IMG/VR virus record: IMGVR_UViG_2690316149_000013
Span: 1-5,026 of that record
From: a virus
Taxonomy: Duplodnaviria > Heunggongvirae > Uroviricota > Caudoviricetes
DNA length: 5,026 nt
Reading direction: 5' to 3' (one strand)
In this document: positions 1 through 5,026 of the stretch, in pieces
Numbering within the stretch: the first letter of the stretch is position 1
Layout: every line of letters begins with the position of its first letter
Notes under the pieces: generated by a model
What the model was told of the DNA's origin: nothing
Seen by the model: only the letters and a program-made list of their open reading frames with translations
Databases searched by the model: none
Program-made: the position numbers and the translations under genes

Positions 1-1
1 C

Positions 2-898
2 CCCGGCTGGCGTCGTGACTGGAATCGTCAGGGCGACTCAATGACCGGAACGATTAATCAGGATGGCGGAAGCCAGAATGCCTATATGTCTACGGCCTTA
101 TGTTCAGGCACCAGAGGCGGCAAAAAATATCTCAGAAAGTTTCGTGGTGGAGAAGGAGACACTATCTGGCATGAAACAGTACAGGGCGGGGTAATTCGCT
201 GGGCGACAGGAAACTATGACGCTCAGGAAGAATTATCACTCAGCTCCGCTTATGGTCTCCGTTCAAGAGGTGAGATTACATCACTCAGTGCTAATGGTCT
301 GCGCATTGCTTATGGCAATTATGGATTCTTTATCAGGAATGATGGCGGCAGCACATATTTAATGCTGACGGCCTCTGGCGATAAATTTGGGACATGGAAC
401 GGCTTAAGACCGCTGACTATCAATAACGCCAATGGCGGAGTGTCAATGGGGCATGGCCTGAGTGTTACAGGTGATATTGTCTCAAGTACCAAAGTACGTG
501 CCGGTAGCGGGAAAAAGTTCACGGTCAGCAGCAGCAATACATCCACGAAGGAAGCCGCATTCAATTTGTGGGGAAACGCAAGTCGTCCGGTGGTGGCTGA
601 ATTAGGTGATGATGCAGGCTGGCATTTTTACAGTCAGAGAAATACAGATAACAGCATCACTTTTGCTGTTAACGGGCAGGTATCACCATCTAACTATGGC
701 AACTTTGATTCACGCTATGTCCGGGATATTAGACTTGGTGGAACAACATGGACGCATCAGGCTCCATCTGGTTGCGCATATACCGGGATTATCGTTCAGG
801 ATACAGGCTCAAACTCTGCCGATAATATTGGTGGTGTTTATTACAGACCAATTCAAAAAAATATTAATGGTACATGGTATAACGTATCGAGTGTTTGA
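2..898 (+). CDS. Tail fiber protein, C-terminal (distal, receptor-binding) portion; 5' end lies outside the window
   Basis: The reading frame is open from base 2 (PGWRRDWNRQGDS... precedes the first Met at 41) to the TGA at 896-898, so the Met at 41 is internal. The product is Gly/Ser/Thr/Asn-rich with Trp/Tyr, typical of fiber distal domains, and is immediately followed by a Tfa-family chaperone gene, the usual fiber-chaperone pairing. Confidence 0.8.
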   Translation, partial: PGWRRDWNRQGDSMTGTINQDGGSQNAYMSTALCSGTRGGKKYLRKFRGGEGDTIWHETVQGGVIRWATGNYDAQEELSLSSAYGLRSRGEITSLSANGLRIAYGNYGFFIRNDGGSTYLMLTASGDKFGTWNGLRPLTINNANGGVSMGHGLSVTGDIVSSTKVRAGSGKKFTVSSSNTSTKEAAFNLWGNASRPVVAELGDDAGWHFYSQRNTDNSITFAVNGQVSPSNYGNFDSRYVRDIRLGGTTWTHQAPSGCAYTGIIVQDTGSNSADNIGGVYYRPIQKNINGTWYNVSSV

Positions 899-900
899 TT

Positions 901-1434
901 ATGATGCATTTAAAAAATATAAAACCGGGCAATCCAAAAACAAAAGAACAGTACCTGTTAACTAAAAACTCCGGCGTTGTCTGGTTATTCGCTGAAGATG
1001 GTAAAAACTGGTATGAGGAACAAAAGAACTTTCAGCCAGACACCATAAAGATTGCATATGATGAAAATAATGTCATATGCGACGTGCAAACGGATGTAAC
1101 TGCAATTTGCCCGGAAGGAAAAAGTGTTGTCGAGTTGCCTAATATTACAGCAAACCGACGCGCTGATATTTCAGGTAACTGGATGTTTAAAGATGGCTCA
1201 GTCATTAAACGTGTGTATACCGAAGAAGAGCAACGCTTGCAGGCTGAAAACCAGAAACAAAGGTTATTACAGCAGGCCAGAGAAAAAACGCAGTTCTGGC
1301 AGACCCAGCTTGCATTAGGGATTATCAGTGATTCAGATAAGCAACAACTGATGCGCTGGATGCGGTACGTGCAACAAGTTGAGACCACTGATACCACTGA
1401 ATTACCCGTTACGTTCCCTGATCAACCAGAATAA
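901..1434 (+). CDS. tfa: Tail fiber assembly protein (Tfa family: lambda Tfa / Mu U / P2 G-like chaperone)
   Basis: Translation MMHLKNIKPGNPKTKEQY...NWYEEQKNFQPDT...ITANRRADISG.WMFKDG..IKR.YTEEEQR...LPVTFPDQPE matches, from memory, the N- and C-terminal signatures of enterobacterial Tfa proteins. The ORF track starts at a TTG at 895; the ATG at 901 (or 904) is the more likely start. It abuts the fiber gene stop (896-898) and ends at TAA 1432-1434. Confidence 0.85.
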   Translation: MMHLKNIKPGNPKTKEQYLLTKNSGVVWLFAEDGKNWYEEQKNFQPDTIKIAYDENNVICDVQTDVTAICPEGKSVVELPNITANRRADISGNWMFKDGSVIKRVYTEEEQRLQAENQKQRLLQQAREKTQFWQTQLALGIISDSDKQQLMRWMRYVQQVETTDTTELPVTFPDQPE

Positions 1435-1440
1435 ACGAAA

Positions 1441-1470
1441 GGCCCGAATATCGGGCCTTATCGTTATTTC
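1441..1470. terminator. Intrinsic terminator hairpin, probably bidirectional, between the convergent tfa and gpU-like genes
   Basis: Perfect 7-bp stem GGCCCGA (1441-1447) / TCGGGCC (1451-1457) with a 3-nt loop ATA, followed on the plus strand by the T-rich run TTATCGTTATTTCTGTTTATC. On the minus strand the same hairpin is followed by TTTCGTTTA. It lies 7 nt after the tfa stop and about 45 nt after the gpU-like stop. Confidence 0.7.
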
Positions 1471-1502
1471 TGTTTATCTAACTATTTGTGATTTGCGTTA
1501 AA

Positions 1503-1997
1503 TCAGAACAGTCCCTTAACAGAACTGACCGCACTGTTAAGGGATGACGCCACCTTATCTTTGAAGCCGGACAGCATATCGCTGAACGATGAGGATTGCA
1601 GGCGCTCCCGCAAATCCTCATCACAGCGTTCAAGGGTCAGTGAAAATTCTATCTTTTTCGCCTTACCGTAGCGATCAAACTCGGAACGGGTCGTATTCGT
1701 TTCAGTCAGCACATACATGCCGTAAATCTGCCCGACACCATCAATCAGAGGCCAGGGGCGTCCTGTATATGCCTGCGTGGTCAGCAACGAAAGCGACACT
1801 TCGCCACCTGTAATTTCAGGATAAAGCACGCCGGAAAGCACGATGCGATCATCACCTGCGCCGATATACTGCCAGCTTGCTGAACGGTTAACGCGTTCAT
1901 TTTTCACATGCCGCCAGCTTTTGTTTTGCTGTAACTGCTGATGCGGCAATGTGCGCAGCTCAAAAACAAACATGCCGTAGATCATCATCATGGCCAT
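1503..1997 (-). CDS. U: Phage tail protein, P2 gpU-like
   Basis: About 160 aa, placed directly downstream of the tape measure gene as in the P2 E-E'-T-U order, with an N-terminus M(A)MMMIYGMFVFELRTLPHQQLQ resembling the Met-rich hydrophobic gpU N-terminus as I recall it. The minus-strand GGAG at 2003-2000 sits 8 nt before the ATG at 1991, so the true start may be 1991 rather than 1997. Confidence 0.8.
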   Translation of the reverse strand: MAMMMIYGMFVFELRTLPHQQLQQNKSWRHVKNERVNRSASWQYIGAGDDRIVLSGVLYPEITGGEVSLSLLTTQAYTGRPWPLIDGVGQIYGMYVLTETNTTRSEFDRYGKAKKIEFSLTLERCDEDLRERLQSSSFSDMLSGFKDKVASSLNSAVSSVKGLF

Positions 1998-2003
1998 GAC
2001 TCC
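1998..2003 (-). promoter_or_regulatory. Shine-Dalgarno (GGAG) for the gpU-like gene, overlapping the tape measure stop codon (translational coupling)
   Basis: Minus strand reads TGA-GGAGTC-ATGGCCATGATGATG, so the tape measure stop at 2006-2004 overlaps a GGAG-containing stretch just upstream of a cluster of in-frame Met codons. Confidence 0.5.
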
Positions 2004-4853
2004 TCAATCTTTATCGTAAAAACTGCCACGCCCGGCACGGGCGCGCCGTTCCATTTCTGCCCTGACCATTTCGCCAACCAGTTTCGCTAGTTCGCGGGGA
2101 TTCTGTGTAACAACGTTATGCAGATGAACATGAATTTCACCGCCAAATCCGGAGGCAACAGGCTCCCGGTTACGGGAAGTTGCAGGAACTGATGCCACTG
2201 GCGATCGTATAGCCTCCGCCACCGGGCGGGAGCTGGCCGCAACAACAGGGACCAGCGCCGGAGGCAGCGGAGCCGGAACCACGGGTGTGATAGTAATTGC
2301 GGGGGCAGGCTTACTGACCTGCGCAATCTTCCGCTCCTGCCACTCCCCACGAACAGCAAGTGCGCGGGGCAGGTTCTTAAAGACAATATCGCCGGGGCCA
2401 ATGCGTTTTTTCGTCTCATCAACCAGCTTACCTGTGTTATCAGCAATTTTGCTGAGTCTGCGTAGCGTACCGGTATTGTTGTCTATGAGCGGTTTGTTGT
2501 CTCTGGGTTTATCGCCTTTTTTGTCGTCGACCTTATCTGACGGGGCCGGGCCGGGAGTCCATGGTTTCTGAACCATTTTCTTGAGAACCGGATCCCATTC
2601 CCACATTACAGGAGCCTTTGAAGCGTTCTCTATTTTCTTTCTCGCCCGTTCCGCTTCATCCGGAAGCACTCCGAGCTTTTCAAGTATCCACGCCAGTGAA
2701 TCCATCAATGCTTTTGTTGGCGTCAGGACAAGCTCTATCGCTCCACCGAGTACCCTGCCGAATACCTCGCCAGCACTGGTACATTTATCCAGCGTTTCCT
2801 TGCTGGACTCCATCGGTGACAGCAGCGATTTAAACCAGTTAAAGACCTGAATAATCCCATCGCGCACGACATCAAAAACTGGACCGAACCGTTCAAAGGT
2901 TTCGCGCAACGGAGCCAGCCGTTCCATAATCCCACTGAACACCCCTGCATAAAACGCCTTGATGGGTTCCCAGTATTTCCAGATGAGAACCGCCGCAGCC
3001 ACAAACGCAGCAGCAATCAATCCGACCGGGCTGAACAGCGCCCCGATAGCGCCCCCCAGTAACGAAACGGAACCCGTCACCATTCCCCATAGTGCTGGCA
3101 GGAGCCTGACAGCATTCATTGATCCGGTCAGGAGGGAAAAGCCAAGACGCAGTTTTGCCAGCGGGCCAGCAAGCACACCAATAGCCAACGACAACGAGCC
3201 GACCGTTGCAGTCATCGCCAGCAATGCCCCACCTGCAATCAGTAGCTGGCGCGTCAGTGCCGGATGGGCCTGCGCCAGCGCCGTCACCTTTGATACCACC
3301 CGCGTGAGCCACTGCGTGACAGAACGCAGCGGACCGTCAATCAGATCTGCAATGCGGATGCGCAACCCTTCCCATGCACTGCCGAGTGATTTCAGATCGC
3401 CGTCAAGGTTGTTGGCCATAACCTTTGCTGTGCGTTCAGCCTCACCGCGCGCGCCTTCAAGTTCTTTTCTCAGTTTGGGTAAGGAGCCGTCACCCGCTGC
3501 ATCAACGAGCGCCATAAACGATGTGAAAGCCTCTTCTCCGGCAATGTCCTTAAAGAACGATACCCGGTCAACTTCCCCGTATTTGCGGGTGGCTTTATAA
3601 AGGTCGGCCAGTACATCCTCCATCGGGCGCATTTTGCCGTTCGCGTCAGAGACAGCCACACCCAGCTCTTTCAGCGCCTCTGCTGCCGCCTTTGGCGGTG
3701 ATGCCAGACGAGCCAGGCTGGCACGCATTGCCGTCCCGGCATCACTCCCTCTGATGCCCATATTCGCCAGCACGCCCGCCATCGCAGCGGCCTGCTCCAG
3801 CGATATTCCCAGCTTACCCGCCACCGGACCTGCATATTTCATGGTTTCGCCCAGCGCGCGAAGGTCAGTGTTGGTACGGGTAAACGCCGCTGTAAGCGTG
3901 TCGCCAACCCGGTCCATCTGGTCAGCAGAAAGGCCGAACTGCGTCAGGATATTTGAGCCAATATCTGCCGTCTCGCCGAGATCCATACCGCCAGCCGTTG
4001 CCATGCTCAGCACTCCGGGAAGCGCAGCCTGAATGGCCTGCGGTGTGAAGCCTGCCATTGCAAGAAATGCCTGCCCACTGGCGGCATCGCCTGCAGTGAA
4101 CTGCGTTTCAGAGCCAAGTTTTAACGCCTGTTCACGCAGCGCCTTAAACTGCGGGCTGTTCTGGTCGATTCGCGTCAGTGCCTGAACGCGGGACATCTCT
4201 TTCCCGAACCCGATCGCAGGCTGCAAAAAACGCCCGGCAGCATAGCTGCCAGCCGCTGCCGCACCAATTGCCAGCGCACCACCTGTTTTCAGTTTTCCCG
4301 CGGTTTCCTGCGCGCGCGAATACCGCTCACGCGCACGTGTTACACGCGCAAGCGCCTGCCGTTCGCGTTCAAGCTGGTTGTTGTACTGTTCGGTGCGTCT
4401 GATGGCCTGCTGGATGGTGTTATCGCTGCCTGTCAGGGAAATGCCGTGGCGTTTCAGCTCTCCGCCAAGCTCCCGCATTTTCTGAATTTCCCGTGTGCGC
4501 GATTCATTCAGGCGTTCAAGCCGGGTGCTTAACTGCTGCATCAGCTTTTGTTGTTTTTCGCTGAGCACTGTACCCGTGCGTTGTAACTGATTAAGGGCGT
4601 TAAGCTGGCGTCGTGCTTTCAATATGCCAGCATCCGCTTTACCGACAGCGTCACGGGCGCGCTCAAATGAACGCGCCTGACGCTCGAGATTTTTGATCGC
4701 CCCCTGCGTTCGCTGGATGGAGTCACCAAACTGCCCCATCAGGCGGCGGGCGTTTTCGGCAGGCCGGGTCAGCCTGTCAACGGCGCTGAAAGCGACCCGG
4801 ATGTCAAGAGTCTTCATTGTCTGCATTCCCGCTGCGAAGTGCCGCCCGCTCAC
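2004..4853 (-). CDS. T: Phage tail tape measure protein (P2 gpT-like tail length determinant)
   Basis: A 949-codon ORF with a coiled-coil-like Arg/Gln/Glu/Leu-rich N-terminal third, a long Gly/Ala/Leu-rich hydrophobic block (…LLIAGGALLAMTATVGSLSLAIGVLAGPLAKL…GLIAAAFVAAAVLIWKYW) and a Pro/Val/Ala-rich C-terminal region, which is the usual tape measure architecture. It sits between an E'-like overlapping ORF and a gpU-like gene. The start is ambiguous: in-frame GTG at 4853, ATG at 4826 and ATG at 4817, the last with GGGA about 9 nt upstream. Confidence 0.85.
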   Translation of the reverse strand: MSGRHFAAGMQTMKTLDIRVAFSAVDRLTRPAENARRLMGQFGDSIQRTQGAIKNLERQARSFERARDAVGKADAGILKARRQLNALNQLQRTGTVLSEKQQKLMQQLSTRLERLNESRTREIQKMRELGGELKRHGISLTGSDNTIQQAIRRTEQYNNQLERERQALARVTRARERYSRAQETAGKLKTGGALAIGAAAAGSYAAGRFLQPAIGFGKEMSRVQALTRIDQNSPQFKALREQALKLGSETQFTAGDAASGQAFLAMAGFTPQAIQAALPGVLSMATAGGMDLGETADIGSNILTQFGLSADQMDRVGDTLTAAFTRTNTDLRALGETMKYAGPVAGKLGISLEQAAAMAGVLANMGIRGSDAGTAMRASLARLASPPKAAAEALKELGVAVSDANGKMRPMEDVLADLYKATRKYGEVDRVSFFKDIAGEEAFTSFMALVDAAGDGSLPKLRKELEGARGEAERTAKVMANNLDGDLKSLGSAWEGLRIRIADLIDGPLRSVTQWLTRVVSKVTALAQAHPALTRQLLIAGGALLAMTATVGSLSLAIGVLAGPLAKLRLGFSLLTGSMNAVRLLPALWGMVTGSVSLLGGAIGALFSPVGLIAAAFVAAAVLIWKYWEPIKAFYAGVFSGIMERLAPLRETFERFGPVFDVVRDGIIQVFNWFKSLLSPMESSKETLDKCTSAGEVFGRVLGGAIELVLTPTKALMDSLAWILEKLGVLPDEAERARKKIENASKAPVMWEWDPVLKKMVQKPWTPGPAPSDKVDDKKGDKPRDNKPLIDNNTGTLRRLSKIADNTGKLVDETKKRIGPGDIVFKNLPRALAVRGEWQERKIAQVSKPAPAITITPVVPAPLPPALVPVVAASSRPVAEAIRSPVASVPATSRNREPVASGFGGEIHVHLHNVVTQNPRELAKLVGEMVRAEMERRARAGRGSFYDKD

Positions 4854-5025
4854 GCCAGCTAACCACTTCGCCGGGCGTCATCATGAAGATTTCGGCGGGC
4901 GACCAGTTAAAAATGGCGGCGATATCTGCCACCAGATCTTCGATGTGCTCAAAGCACACCAGGGTGATTACGCTGCCGTCTCCTGCACGCTCTTCGCGCC
5001 AGAGTCTGGCTCGCTCATAAAATTT
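4804..5025 (-). CDS. Tail assembly chaperone frameshift extension (P2 E'-like / lambda GT-like), partial; 5' end outside the window
   Basis: A minus-strand frame is open from the window edge to the TGA at 4806-4804, giving …YERARLWREERAGDGSVITLVCFEHIEDLVADIAAIFNWSPAEIFMMTPGEVVSWRERAALRSGNADNEDS*. It overlaps the start of the tape measure gene and lies -1 relative to a second frame that is open at the edge, the geometry of the conserved two-frame tail chaperone upstream of tape measure genes. Confidence 0.5.
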   Translation of the reverse strand, partial: KFYERARLWREERAGDGSVITLVCFEHIEDLVADIAAIFNWSPAEIFMMTPGEVVSWRERAALRSGNADNEDS

Positions 5026-5026
5026 A
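4968..5026 (-). CDS. Possible C-terminus of the 0-frame tail assembly chaperone (P2 E-like / lambda G-like), partial
   Basis: The minus-strand frame +1 to the E'-like frame is open at the window edge and ends at the TAA at 4970-4968 (…NFMSEPDSGAKSVQETAA*). Only 19 codons are visible, so this rests on position alone. Confidence 0.3.
   Translation of the reverse strand, partial: NFMSEPDSGAKSVQETAA
5019..5025 (-). other. Candidate -1 programmed ribosomal frameshift heptamer A-AAU-UUU (X XXY YYZ form)
   Basis: The minus strand reads A AAT TTT at 5025-5019, with AAT and TTT as codons in the putative E frame; a -1 slip gives AAA TTT and continues into the E'-like frame. It lies 17 codons before the putative E-frame stop. 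It is at the very window edge, so the upstream context cannot be seen. Confidence 0.3.

Follow-up and report, generated by a model that had tools for sequence, protein, structure and literature searches.

Convergence of the gpU block on the tail fibre/Tfa genes in a 5,026-bp prophage contig follows the usual layout of P88-like phages

In phage P2, the late genes for the tail are carried on a single strand. The annotated record reads V-W-J-I-H-G, a terminator, fun(Z) and then pF-FI-FII-E-E'-T-U-D-ogr, and gpD begins at the last base of gpU. The locus described here does not follow this order. It is a stretch of 5,026 nucleotides (hereafter the window) that makes up the entire 5,026-bp draft contig CXZS01000064.1 of assembly GCA_001284085.1. 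In the window, the genes H-G do not share a strand with the tail-tube genes; H-G and U-T-E' converge, and gpD is absent from the place where P2 has it. A first-pass annotation, made from the letters of the window, had considered this order non-canonical and had attributed it to module shuffling, an inversion, or a degraded or reduced element such as a prophage remnant or tailocin-like locus. The question is thus whether the order marks a damaged or reshuffled element or is the normal layout of a phage lineage other than that of P2. The features of the window are listed in Table 1.

Table 1. Features of the 5,026-nt window and the evidence for each of them.
Feature	Coordinates	Strand	Basis
Tail fibre C-terminus (gpH homologue), last 298 codons	2..898	+	frame open from base 2, stop 896-898
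Tfa, tail fibre assembly chaperone (gpG homologue), 177 aa	901..1434	+	Pfam Caudo_TAP 2.4e-33; PHROG_136 1e-69
Putative bidirectional intrinsic terminator, 9-bp GC-rich hairpin	1439..1459	both	terminator scan, picked up on each strand
Decayed terminator-hairpin remnant (putative)	1470..1495	both	aligns to CCGCTAATCTGACCATTAGCGGTTTTTG of P88, PhiR44_2 and Chuche; stem broken
gpU homologue (tail tube terminator/initiator protein), 164 aa	1503..1997	-	Pfam Phage_P2_GpU PF06995 5.6e-39; PHROG_76 2.6e-74
gpT homologue, tail tape measure, 937 aa from likely ATG at 4817	2004..4817	-	Pfam PhageMin_Tail PF10145 2.3e-58; PHROG_28 2.9e-214
E' frame, C-terminal part of E+E' frameshift product (tail assembly chaperone)	4804..5025	-	Pfam Phage_P2_GpE PF06528 3.4e-12; PHROG_1756 9.4e-29
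Gene E 3' end, last 19 codons and TAA stop (4970-4968)	4968..5026	-	sequence; remainder beyond contig end
Candidate -1 slippery heptamer A_AAT_TTT, E frame	5019..5025	-	sequence; 3 nt upstream of, and overlapping, the T_TTT_TTG/T_TTT_ATG position

Profile searches assign the plus-strand frame at the left end to the tail fibre (Pfam Gp34_trimer, 5.8e-26; PHROG tail fibre, 2.4e-61). This C-terminal part carries the receptor-binding end of the protein, and its 5' part is cut off by the end of the contig; full-length H in related E. coli prophages is 819-863 aa. In BLASTP comparisons with P2, Tfa is 59% identical to gpG, the 164-aa protein is 46% identical to gpU (E=7e-45) and the tape measure is 33% identical to gpT over 732 aa (E=8e-100). 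In RefSeq annotation, gpU of the relatives is given as a 162-aa form. The tape measure gene lies directly upstream of gpU, as in P2-type phages; the gap here is 6 nt. Its reading frame is open to a GTG at 4853 (2004-4853), which corresponds to 949 aa, and gene calling on the source contig, the single contig with a record of this exact protein, gives the 937-aa form. The E' frame is -1 relative to E, shares 14 nt with the beginning of gpT and remains open to the end of the window. The end of gene E aligns with that of a 'tail protein' gene of 121-124 aa, which precedes GpE in P88, PhiSM and the prophages. All five genes of the window are intact, including the 937-aa tape measure. The five gene identities proposed at first reading are therefore upheld by Pfam, PHROG and BLASTP, and its placement of the 164-aa and 949-aa proteins in the gpU and tape measure families passed the homology check.

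The stop codons of Tfa (1434) and gpU (1503) are separated by 68 nt. Within this gap, the GC-rich hairpin at 1439-1459 folds at -20.7 kcal/mol on the plus strand and -22.2 kcal/mol on the minus strand (z of -5.8 and -6.2, none of 200 shuffled sequences being as good), and T-rich tails are present on either side of it. The described convergence of the gpU block on the Tfa/fibre region across a terminator is thus borne out by the coordinates, the short gap and the detection of the hairpin on both strands. Such a hairpin would act as a terminator common to the two converging late operons. Beside it lies a second, broken stem (1470-1495), which folds at only -1.3 and -1.8 kcal/mol on the two strands, no better than shuffled sequences; the corresponding copy in P88 folds at -15.7 and -16.1 kcal/mol. 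P88, PhiR44_2 and Chuche have this terminator beside gpU, whereas in the window it is decayed. The block conserved with other phages begins at 1492. Presumably, the fibre-tip/Tfa cassette brought its own terminator, and this hairpin took over termination from the older, decayed one on the gpU side. An Rfam scan of the window gave no family at threshold, and a sigma-70 promoter scan gave 0 sites against 3.8 expected. P2 late promoters are activator-dependent, and the sigma-70 scan is thus uninformative here.

Comparison at the nucleotide level places the window close to known phages. Bases 1492-5026 are 93.7-94.9% identical to P88, Shae_phiSM, 520873, 503458 and P884B11 by megablast, an identity to Xuanwuvirus members that refers to the comparable 70% of the 5-kb piece. 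Across its whole length, the window is 91-95% identical by blastn to six E. coli prophages that encode the very same Tfa; two of these reach 95.8-96.6% by megablast, and the best full-length match among complete E. coli chromosomes is at 96.6%. The prophages carry genes for the major capsid protein, small terminase and lysis (holin, endolysin) along with R, S, V, W, J and I, and after a full H the order is G, U, T, E', E, FII, FI, D, ogr. Related prophages also include sheath, tube and baseplate genes, replication genes are present in relatives as well, and one further related locus adds the portal and large terminase and has an IS3 inside its fibre gene. The D protein of a related prophage is 49% identical to P2 gpD. 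Thus, the Xuanwuvirus layout is seen in two parts, the convergent part in the window itself and the FI/D part in prophages 91-95% identical to it. The expectation that gpD should come after gpU was correct relative to P2. The proposed inspection of the neighbourhood, carried out on the near-identical prophages, did locate gpD, sheath, tube, baseplate and full fibre genes; in these prophages, gpD lies beyond FI.

These observations bear on the view that the locus is what remains of a degraded prophage, or a reduced element of tailocin type, in which module shuffling replaced gpD by the fibre/Tfa cassette. It is true that gpD, the sheath, tube and baseplate genes and the 5' portion of the fibre gene are not in the window. 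O157:H7 does contain degraded relatives arranged in this way, as in strain F8797, where the tape measure is frameshifted, D is truncated and IS elements are present, and the IS3 in the fibre gene of one close relative points in the same direction. However, as the window is the whole contig, the absence of gpD, the 5' fibre part and the neighbouring genes reflects contig ends and not deletions. The genes that are present are intact, and relatives that carry this junction possess complete sets of head, terminase, lysis and replication genes, with gpD beside the sheath gene in the near-identical prophages. Moreover, the plaque-forming phages P88 and PhiSM have the same order (PMC5285337, PMC6456863), as do the phage genomes PhiR44_2 and SEN4. 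A remnant or tailocin is, on this evidence, very unlikely. Phage-like completeness is shown in the relatives, the source copy being known from this contig alone. Very probably, then, the window comes from an ordinary P88-like (Xuanwuvirus, Peduoviridae) temperate myovirus prophage from E. coli or a very close relative, with the inverted FI-to-U block as the usual layout of its lineage. Nothing in the content of the window is at odds with this reading.

The layout itself can be followed across the family. In P88, V-W-J-I-H-G run rightwards and are followed by an invertible Tfa/fibre segment and a DNA invertase; U-T-E'-E-FII-FI then run leftwards and D again rightwards, with hok further on. The ogr gene is unannotated in the P88 record, and tblastn puts it just after D. 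Convergence of this kind, together with a D gene that diverges from FI, is found in the Xuanwuvirus members P88, Shae_phiSM, 503458, 520873 and PhiR44_2, and in PhiR44_2, as in the window, H-G faces U directly without an invertase. Gemsvirus 500465-2 is convergent too, and so is the Salmonella phage SEN4 (Senquatrovirus), which has no invertase at the junction. A tblastn map of twelve marker proteins revealed the inverted block in SEN4 as well as in Klebsiella Reginaelenavirus and Reipivirus (Kp4878-3, Kp4851-1). The P2 order is kept in Kapieceevirus, ENT90 and P2. Since five Peduoviridae genera have the inverted order, the P2 order defines P2 itself and not the family. From these gene orders, it follows that the six genes FI-FII-E-E'-T-U are cleanly inverted as a unit relative to P2, while D and ogr keep the P2 orientation.

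Functional evidence is available for two of these phages. P88 has been induced, forms plaques and was imaged by electron microscopy (PMC5285337), and PhiSM, which is released spontaneously, produces plaques and establishes lysogeny in K-12 strains (PMC6456863). The inversion is not discussed in either of these papers, and no explicit description of it was found in the literature searched. The convergent tail-gene order is the standard conserved layout of the P88-like phages, a well-known group frequent among E. coli prophages, and it is ordinary. The description of the locus as non-canonical does not hold, because complete functional phages, P88 and PhiSM, share exactly this order. What was called a rearranged known system and not a new one does match the P88-like phages. 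Among the causes offered, an inversion relative to P2 stands, but a shuffled, degraded or tailocin-like locus is not supported, given its P88-like layout and its complete relatives.

The age of the inversion was considered from FI and D. In the inverted-order phages, these proteins are 55-71% identical to the Xuanwuvirus proteins, compared with 45-52% for P2 and Kapieceevirus, the only two P2-order phages mapped. Since FI and D are closer among the inverted-order phages and the orientation is uniform across five genera, the data would fit one old inversion common to a subclade of Peduoviridae. The alternative is a recent flip at the level of the strain, for example by a Gin/Pin-type invertase acting at secondary sites, with both orientations coexisting. 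In its favour, an invertase gene is located directly beside gpU, at the edge of the inverted block, in most Xuanwuvirus genomes. Yet the orientation does not vary among the examined relatives with a gpU identity of 55% or more, which span five genera; SEN4 and PhiR44_2 are inverted with no invertase at the junction; the FI and D identities given above point to an old event; and no P2-oriented close relative was seen in the sampled genomes (n=3). A recent flip is accordingly regarded as extremely improbable, and an old, clade-wide inversion remains the preferred reading.

The distribution of the junction in E. coli was examined next to that of the gpU block. With coverage of at least 80% of window bases 1150-1850 (Tfa-terminator-gpU) as the threshold, 28 of the 5,426 complete E. 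coli genomes carry the junction, at best with 99.9% identity. It is also found in six further assemblies, and bases 740-1800, which include the whole junction, are identical in three related loci. The gpU block is far more widespread, occurring in about a quarter of the complete genomes (~1,481 of 5,426), and the order was convergent in all the three genomes sampled down the gpU ranking. These counts also address an assembly chimera, a concern raised by a 5,026-bp draft contig that ends inside genes repeated among P2-like prophages. The match of bases 1150-1850 to a closed E. coli chromosome at 99.9%, the 28 complete genomes and the six further assemblies speak against it, as does the convergent order in phage genomes that come from independent laboratories, and a chimeric junction can be regarded as next to inconceivable.

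Differences between the window and its relatives are concentrated on the fibre side. GC content is 40-49% in the fibre/Tfa part and 54-60% over most of the tail operon, and window bases 1-738 match fibre genes from P2-like phages of Yersinia pestis, and that of Yersinia phage P37, at 97% identity. The low-GC fibre-tip/Tfa cassette is a host-range module exchanged horizontally. In the assembly collection, 1,463 indexed blocks contain the identical Tfa protein. By experiment, the C-terminal fibre region of P88 determines host range (PMC5285337). The gap between G and U is a variable slot, a site for cargo and host range. In P88, PhiSM, 503458, 520873, 500465-2 and two sampled E. coli prophages, it holds an invertible fibre/Tfa segment with an invertase; in Chuche it holds a glycosyltransferase and in the O157:H7 remnant a serine O-acetyltransferase. 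In PhiR44_2 it measures 253 nt and has no invertase. The slot thus contains invertible fibre cassettes, LPS-modifying enzymes or, as in the window, nothing. In the window, no serine DNA invertase and no second, opposed Tfa/fibre C-terminus were found.

From the gene order, the following scheme can be proposed for expression of the locus. The late operon ending in V-W-J-I-H-G runs rightwards and the sheath-to-gpU operon leftwards. The late transcript with H-G at its end and the one with U at its end would meet and stop at the hairpin of the junction. gpD and ogr would be read from a divergent region of ~157 bp common with the sheath gene FI, whereas P2 has them at the end of the F operon. gpD would thereby be uncoupled from the F operon in this branch, and the acquisition of a late promoter of its own is implied. 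With TGT-N(10-14)-ACA as the pattern for an Ogr-type activator motif, no match was found in the FI/D or P/O intergenic regions of one related prophage. These two regions share the motifs ACAACAAAA(A)GC and C(T/C)TTGTATC.

E and E+E' would be made by a -1 frameshift, as in P2. The frameshift site of P2 is TTTTTTG (PMC3091744). T_TTT_TTG is present in P2, SEN4, Kp4878-3, Kapieceevirus and the P88-type allele, whereas the window has T_TTT_ATG in its place, as do PhiSM, 503458, 520873 and two prophages. In the window, the E' frame, -1 to E and overlapping T, matches PF06528, and A_AAT_TTT is the sole remaining candidate heptamer. This heptamer is kept in both the alleles, slippage there gives the same E' frame, and the peptide of the -1 frame is conserved between the two alleles from A_AAT_TTT onward. 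PhiSM is viable despite TTTTATG, which leaves slippage at A_AAT_TTT or another route to E+E'. Provided that E+E' remains necessary, phages of the TTTTATG allele may shift at A_AAT_TTT, and P2-like phages would then have a second slip site that has so far gone undescribed. We offer this tentatively, as a serious possibility that we still consider somewhat doubtful. If true, the P88-type alleles carry two tandem, overlapping slip sites.

An order that looks wrong against textbook P2 is thus normal for a large and common branch of the same family, and for annotators and scanning tools, a U gene facing Tfa with no D is not to be read as decay or as a tailocin. Among known systems, the window is most like Xuanwuvirus (P88, Shae_phiSM, PhiR44_2, Chuche, 503458, 520873, P884B11), with which it has in common the gpU-T-E'-E end and the inverted block. 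The fibre tip/Tfa cassette of these phages differs from that of the window, which is nearest to the fibres of Yersinia P2-like phages. P88, PhiSM, 503458 and 520873 have a second, invertible fibre/Tfa region and an invertase between G and U, where the window has 68 nt only. P2 has the same gene families in the same order within each block, and its E' likewise overlaps the start of T. It differs in having all of them on one strand, with U followed by D and fun(Z) between G and FI, whereas in the lineage of the window FI to U are inverted and D is apart from U; the slip sites also differ, TTTTTTG in P2 and TTTTATG in the window.

SEN4, Reginaelenavirus and Reipivirus have the same architecture, in which U runs towards the fibre genes (towards G in SEN4) and D-ogr points away from FI. 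Their gpU is only 55-66% identical, and they have other hosts and other fibre modules. As the inverted layout is common to these phages, it would be an old, clade-wide trait. The invertible segments of Mu (G/gin), P1 (C/cin) and e14 (P/pin) have a comparable counterpart in the G-U slot of many relatives of the window. The P88 segment has inverted repeats of 65 nt at its borders. They are located ~1 kb before the stop codon of H, and the corresponding position falls just beyond the left end of the window. In Mu, P1 and e14, the opposed genes are those of an alternative fibre, whereas in the window they are the tail-tube operon. R-type tailocins, such as the R2 pyocin cluster, have homologous sheath, tube and E/T/U/D-type genes and a pair of fibre and chaperone genes. 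The relatives of the window differ from them in possessing capsid, portal, terminase, replication and integrase genes and in forming plaques (PMC5285337).

In the C-terminal third of the tape-measure gene lies a mosaic segment where mismatches to the closest prophages climb to 14-50 per 100 nt, up from 0-5. The segment also has a 7-nt/1-nt indel pair, yet the ORF is still open. In a second relative (prophage L012), the divergence spans 2500-4100 instead. This pattern suggests that recombination has taken place inside the tape-measure gene.

Compared with the closest E. coli prophages, the window's fibre gene has an in-frame deletion of 30 nt, or 10 codons (GASSYKPANN). Its position is the exact end of a 97% match to the fibre gene of Yersinia phage P37, and the deletion is probably a recombination joint, or else an indel, within the tip that binds the receptor. 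In strain HCP5S3_I2, the best-matching complete genome, the fibre gene of this prophage is split by an IS3-family element, and a functional fibre is probably not made from that copy.

At the E/E' slip site, the window allele is TTTTATG, and the sole remaining heptamer is an overlapping A_AAT_TTT, 3 nt upstream. TTTTTTG is kept in P2, SEN4, Klebsiella phages and P88. The TTTTATG allele is also present in phages 503458 and 520873, in prophages L012 and L019, and in PhiSM, a viable phage.

Location of the features described in the text
Feature	Sequence	Position
Fibre gene deletion	Window	739/740
Terminator remnant	Window	1470-1495
Tape-measure mosaic segment	Window	about 2500-3300
7-nt/1-nt indel pair	Window	2540-2586
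E/E' slip site (- strand)	Window	5013-5025
P/O intergenic region, 154 nt	HCP5S3_I2 prophage (L001)	8590-8743
S-V junction	L001	14650-14662
Split fibre gene	L001	18536-19764
FI/D intergenic region, 157 nt	L001	27109-27265
S-V junction	Related prophage (L010)	5053
G-gpU slot: invertible fibre/Tfa segment and DNA invertase	Phage P88 (L002)	25416-27564
G-gpU slot: glycosyltransferase	Phage Chuche (L004)	31-939
G-gpU slot: serine O-acetyltransferase	O157:H7 remnant (L018)	6279-6851

Outside the window, two divergent late intergenic regions, P/O and FI/D, are present in the HCP5S3_I2 prophage. Two motifs, ACAACAAAA(A)GC and C(T/C)TTGTATC, are common to both, and neither region has a match to TGT-N(10-14)-ACA. 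The two regions are candidates for late-promoter elements, and the uncoupled gpD would be served by one of them. In P88-type prophages S is followed by V almost without a gap, whereas in P2 orf30, a terminator and the pV region, all three absent from these prophages, lie between the two genes. The O operon may therefore continue through V-W-J-I-H-G as a single long late transcript.

Adjoining gpU, the window retains a decayed remnant of the terminator hairpin conserved at this place in P88, PhiR44_2 and Chuche; its stem is broken and it folds no better than shuffled sequences. Between G and gpU is a slot that stands empty in the window and carries differing cargo among the relatives. The analogue of this slot in P2 is the fun(Z) slot.
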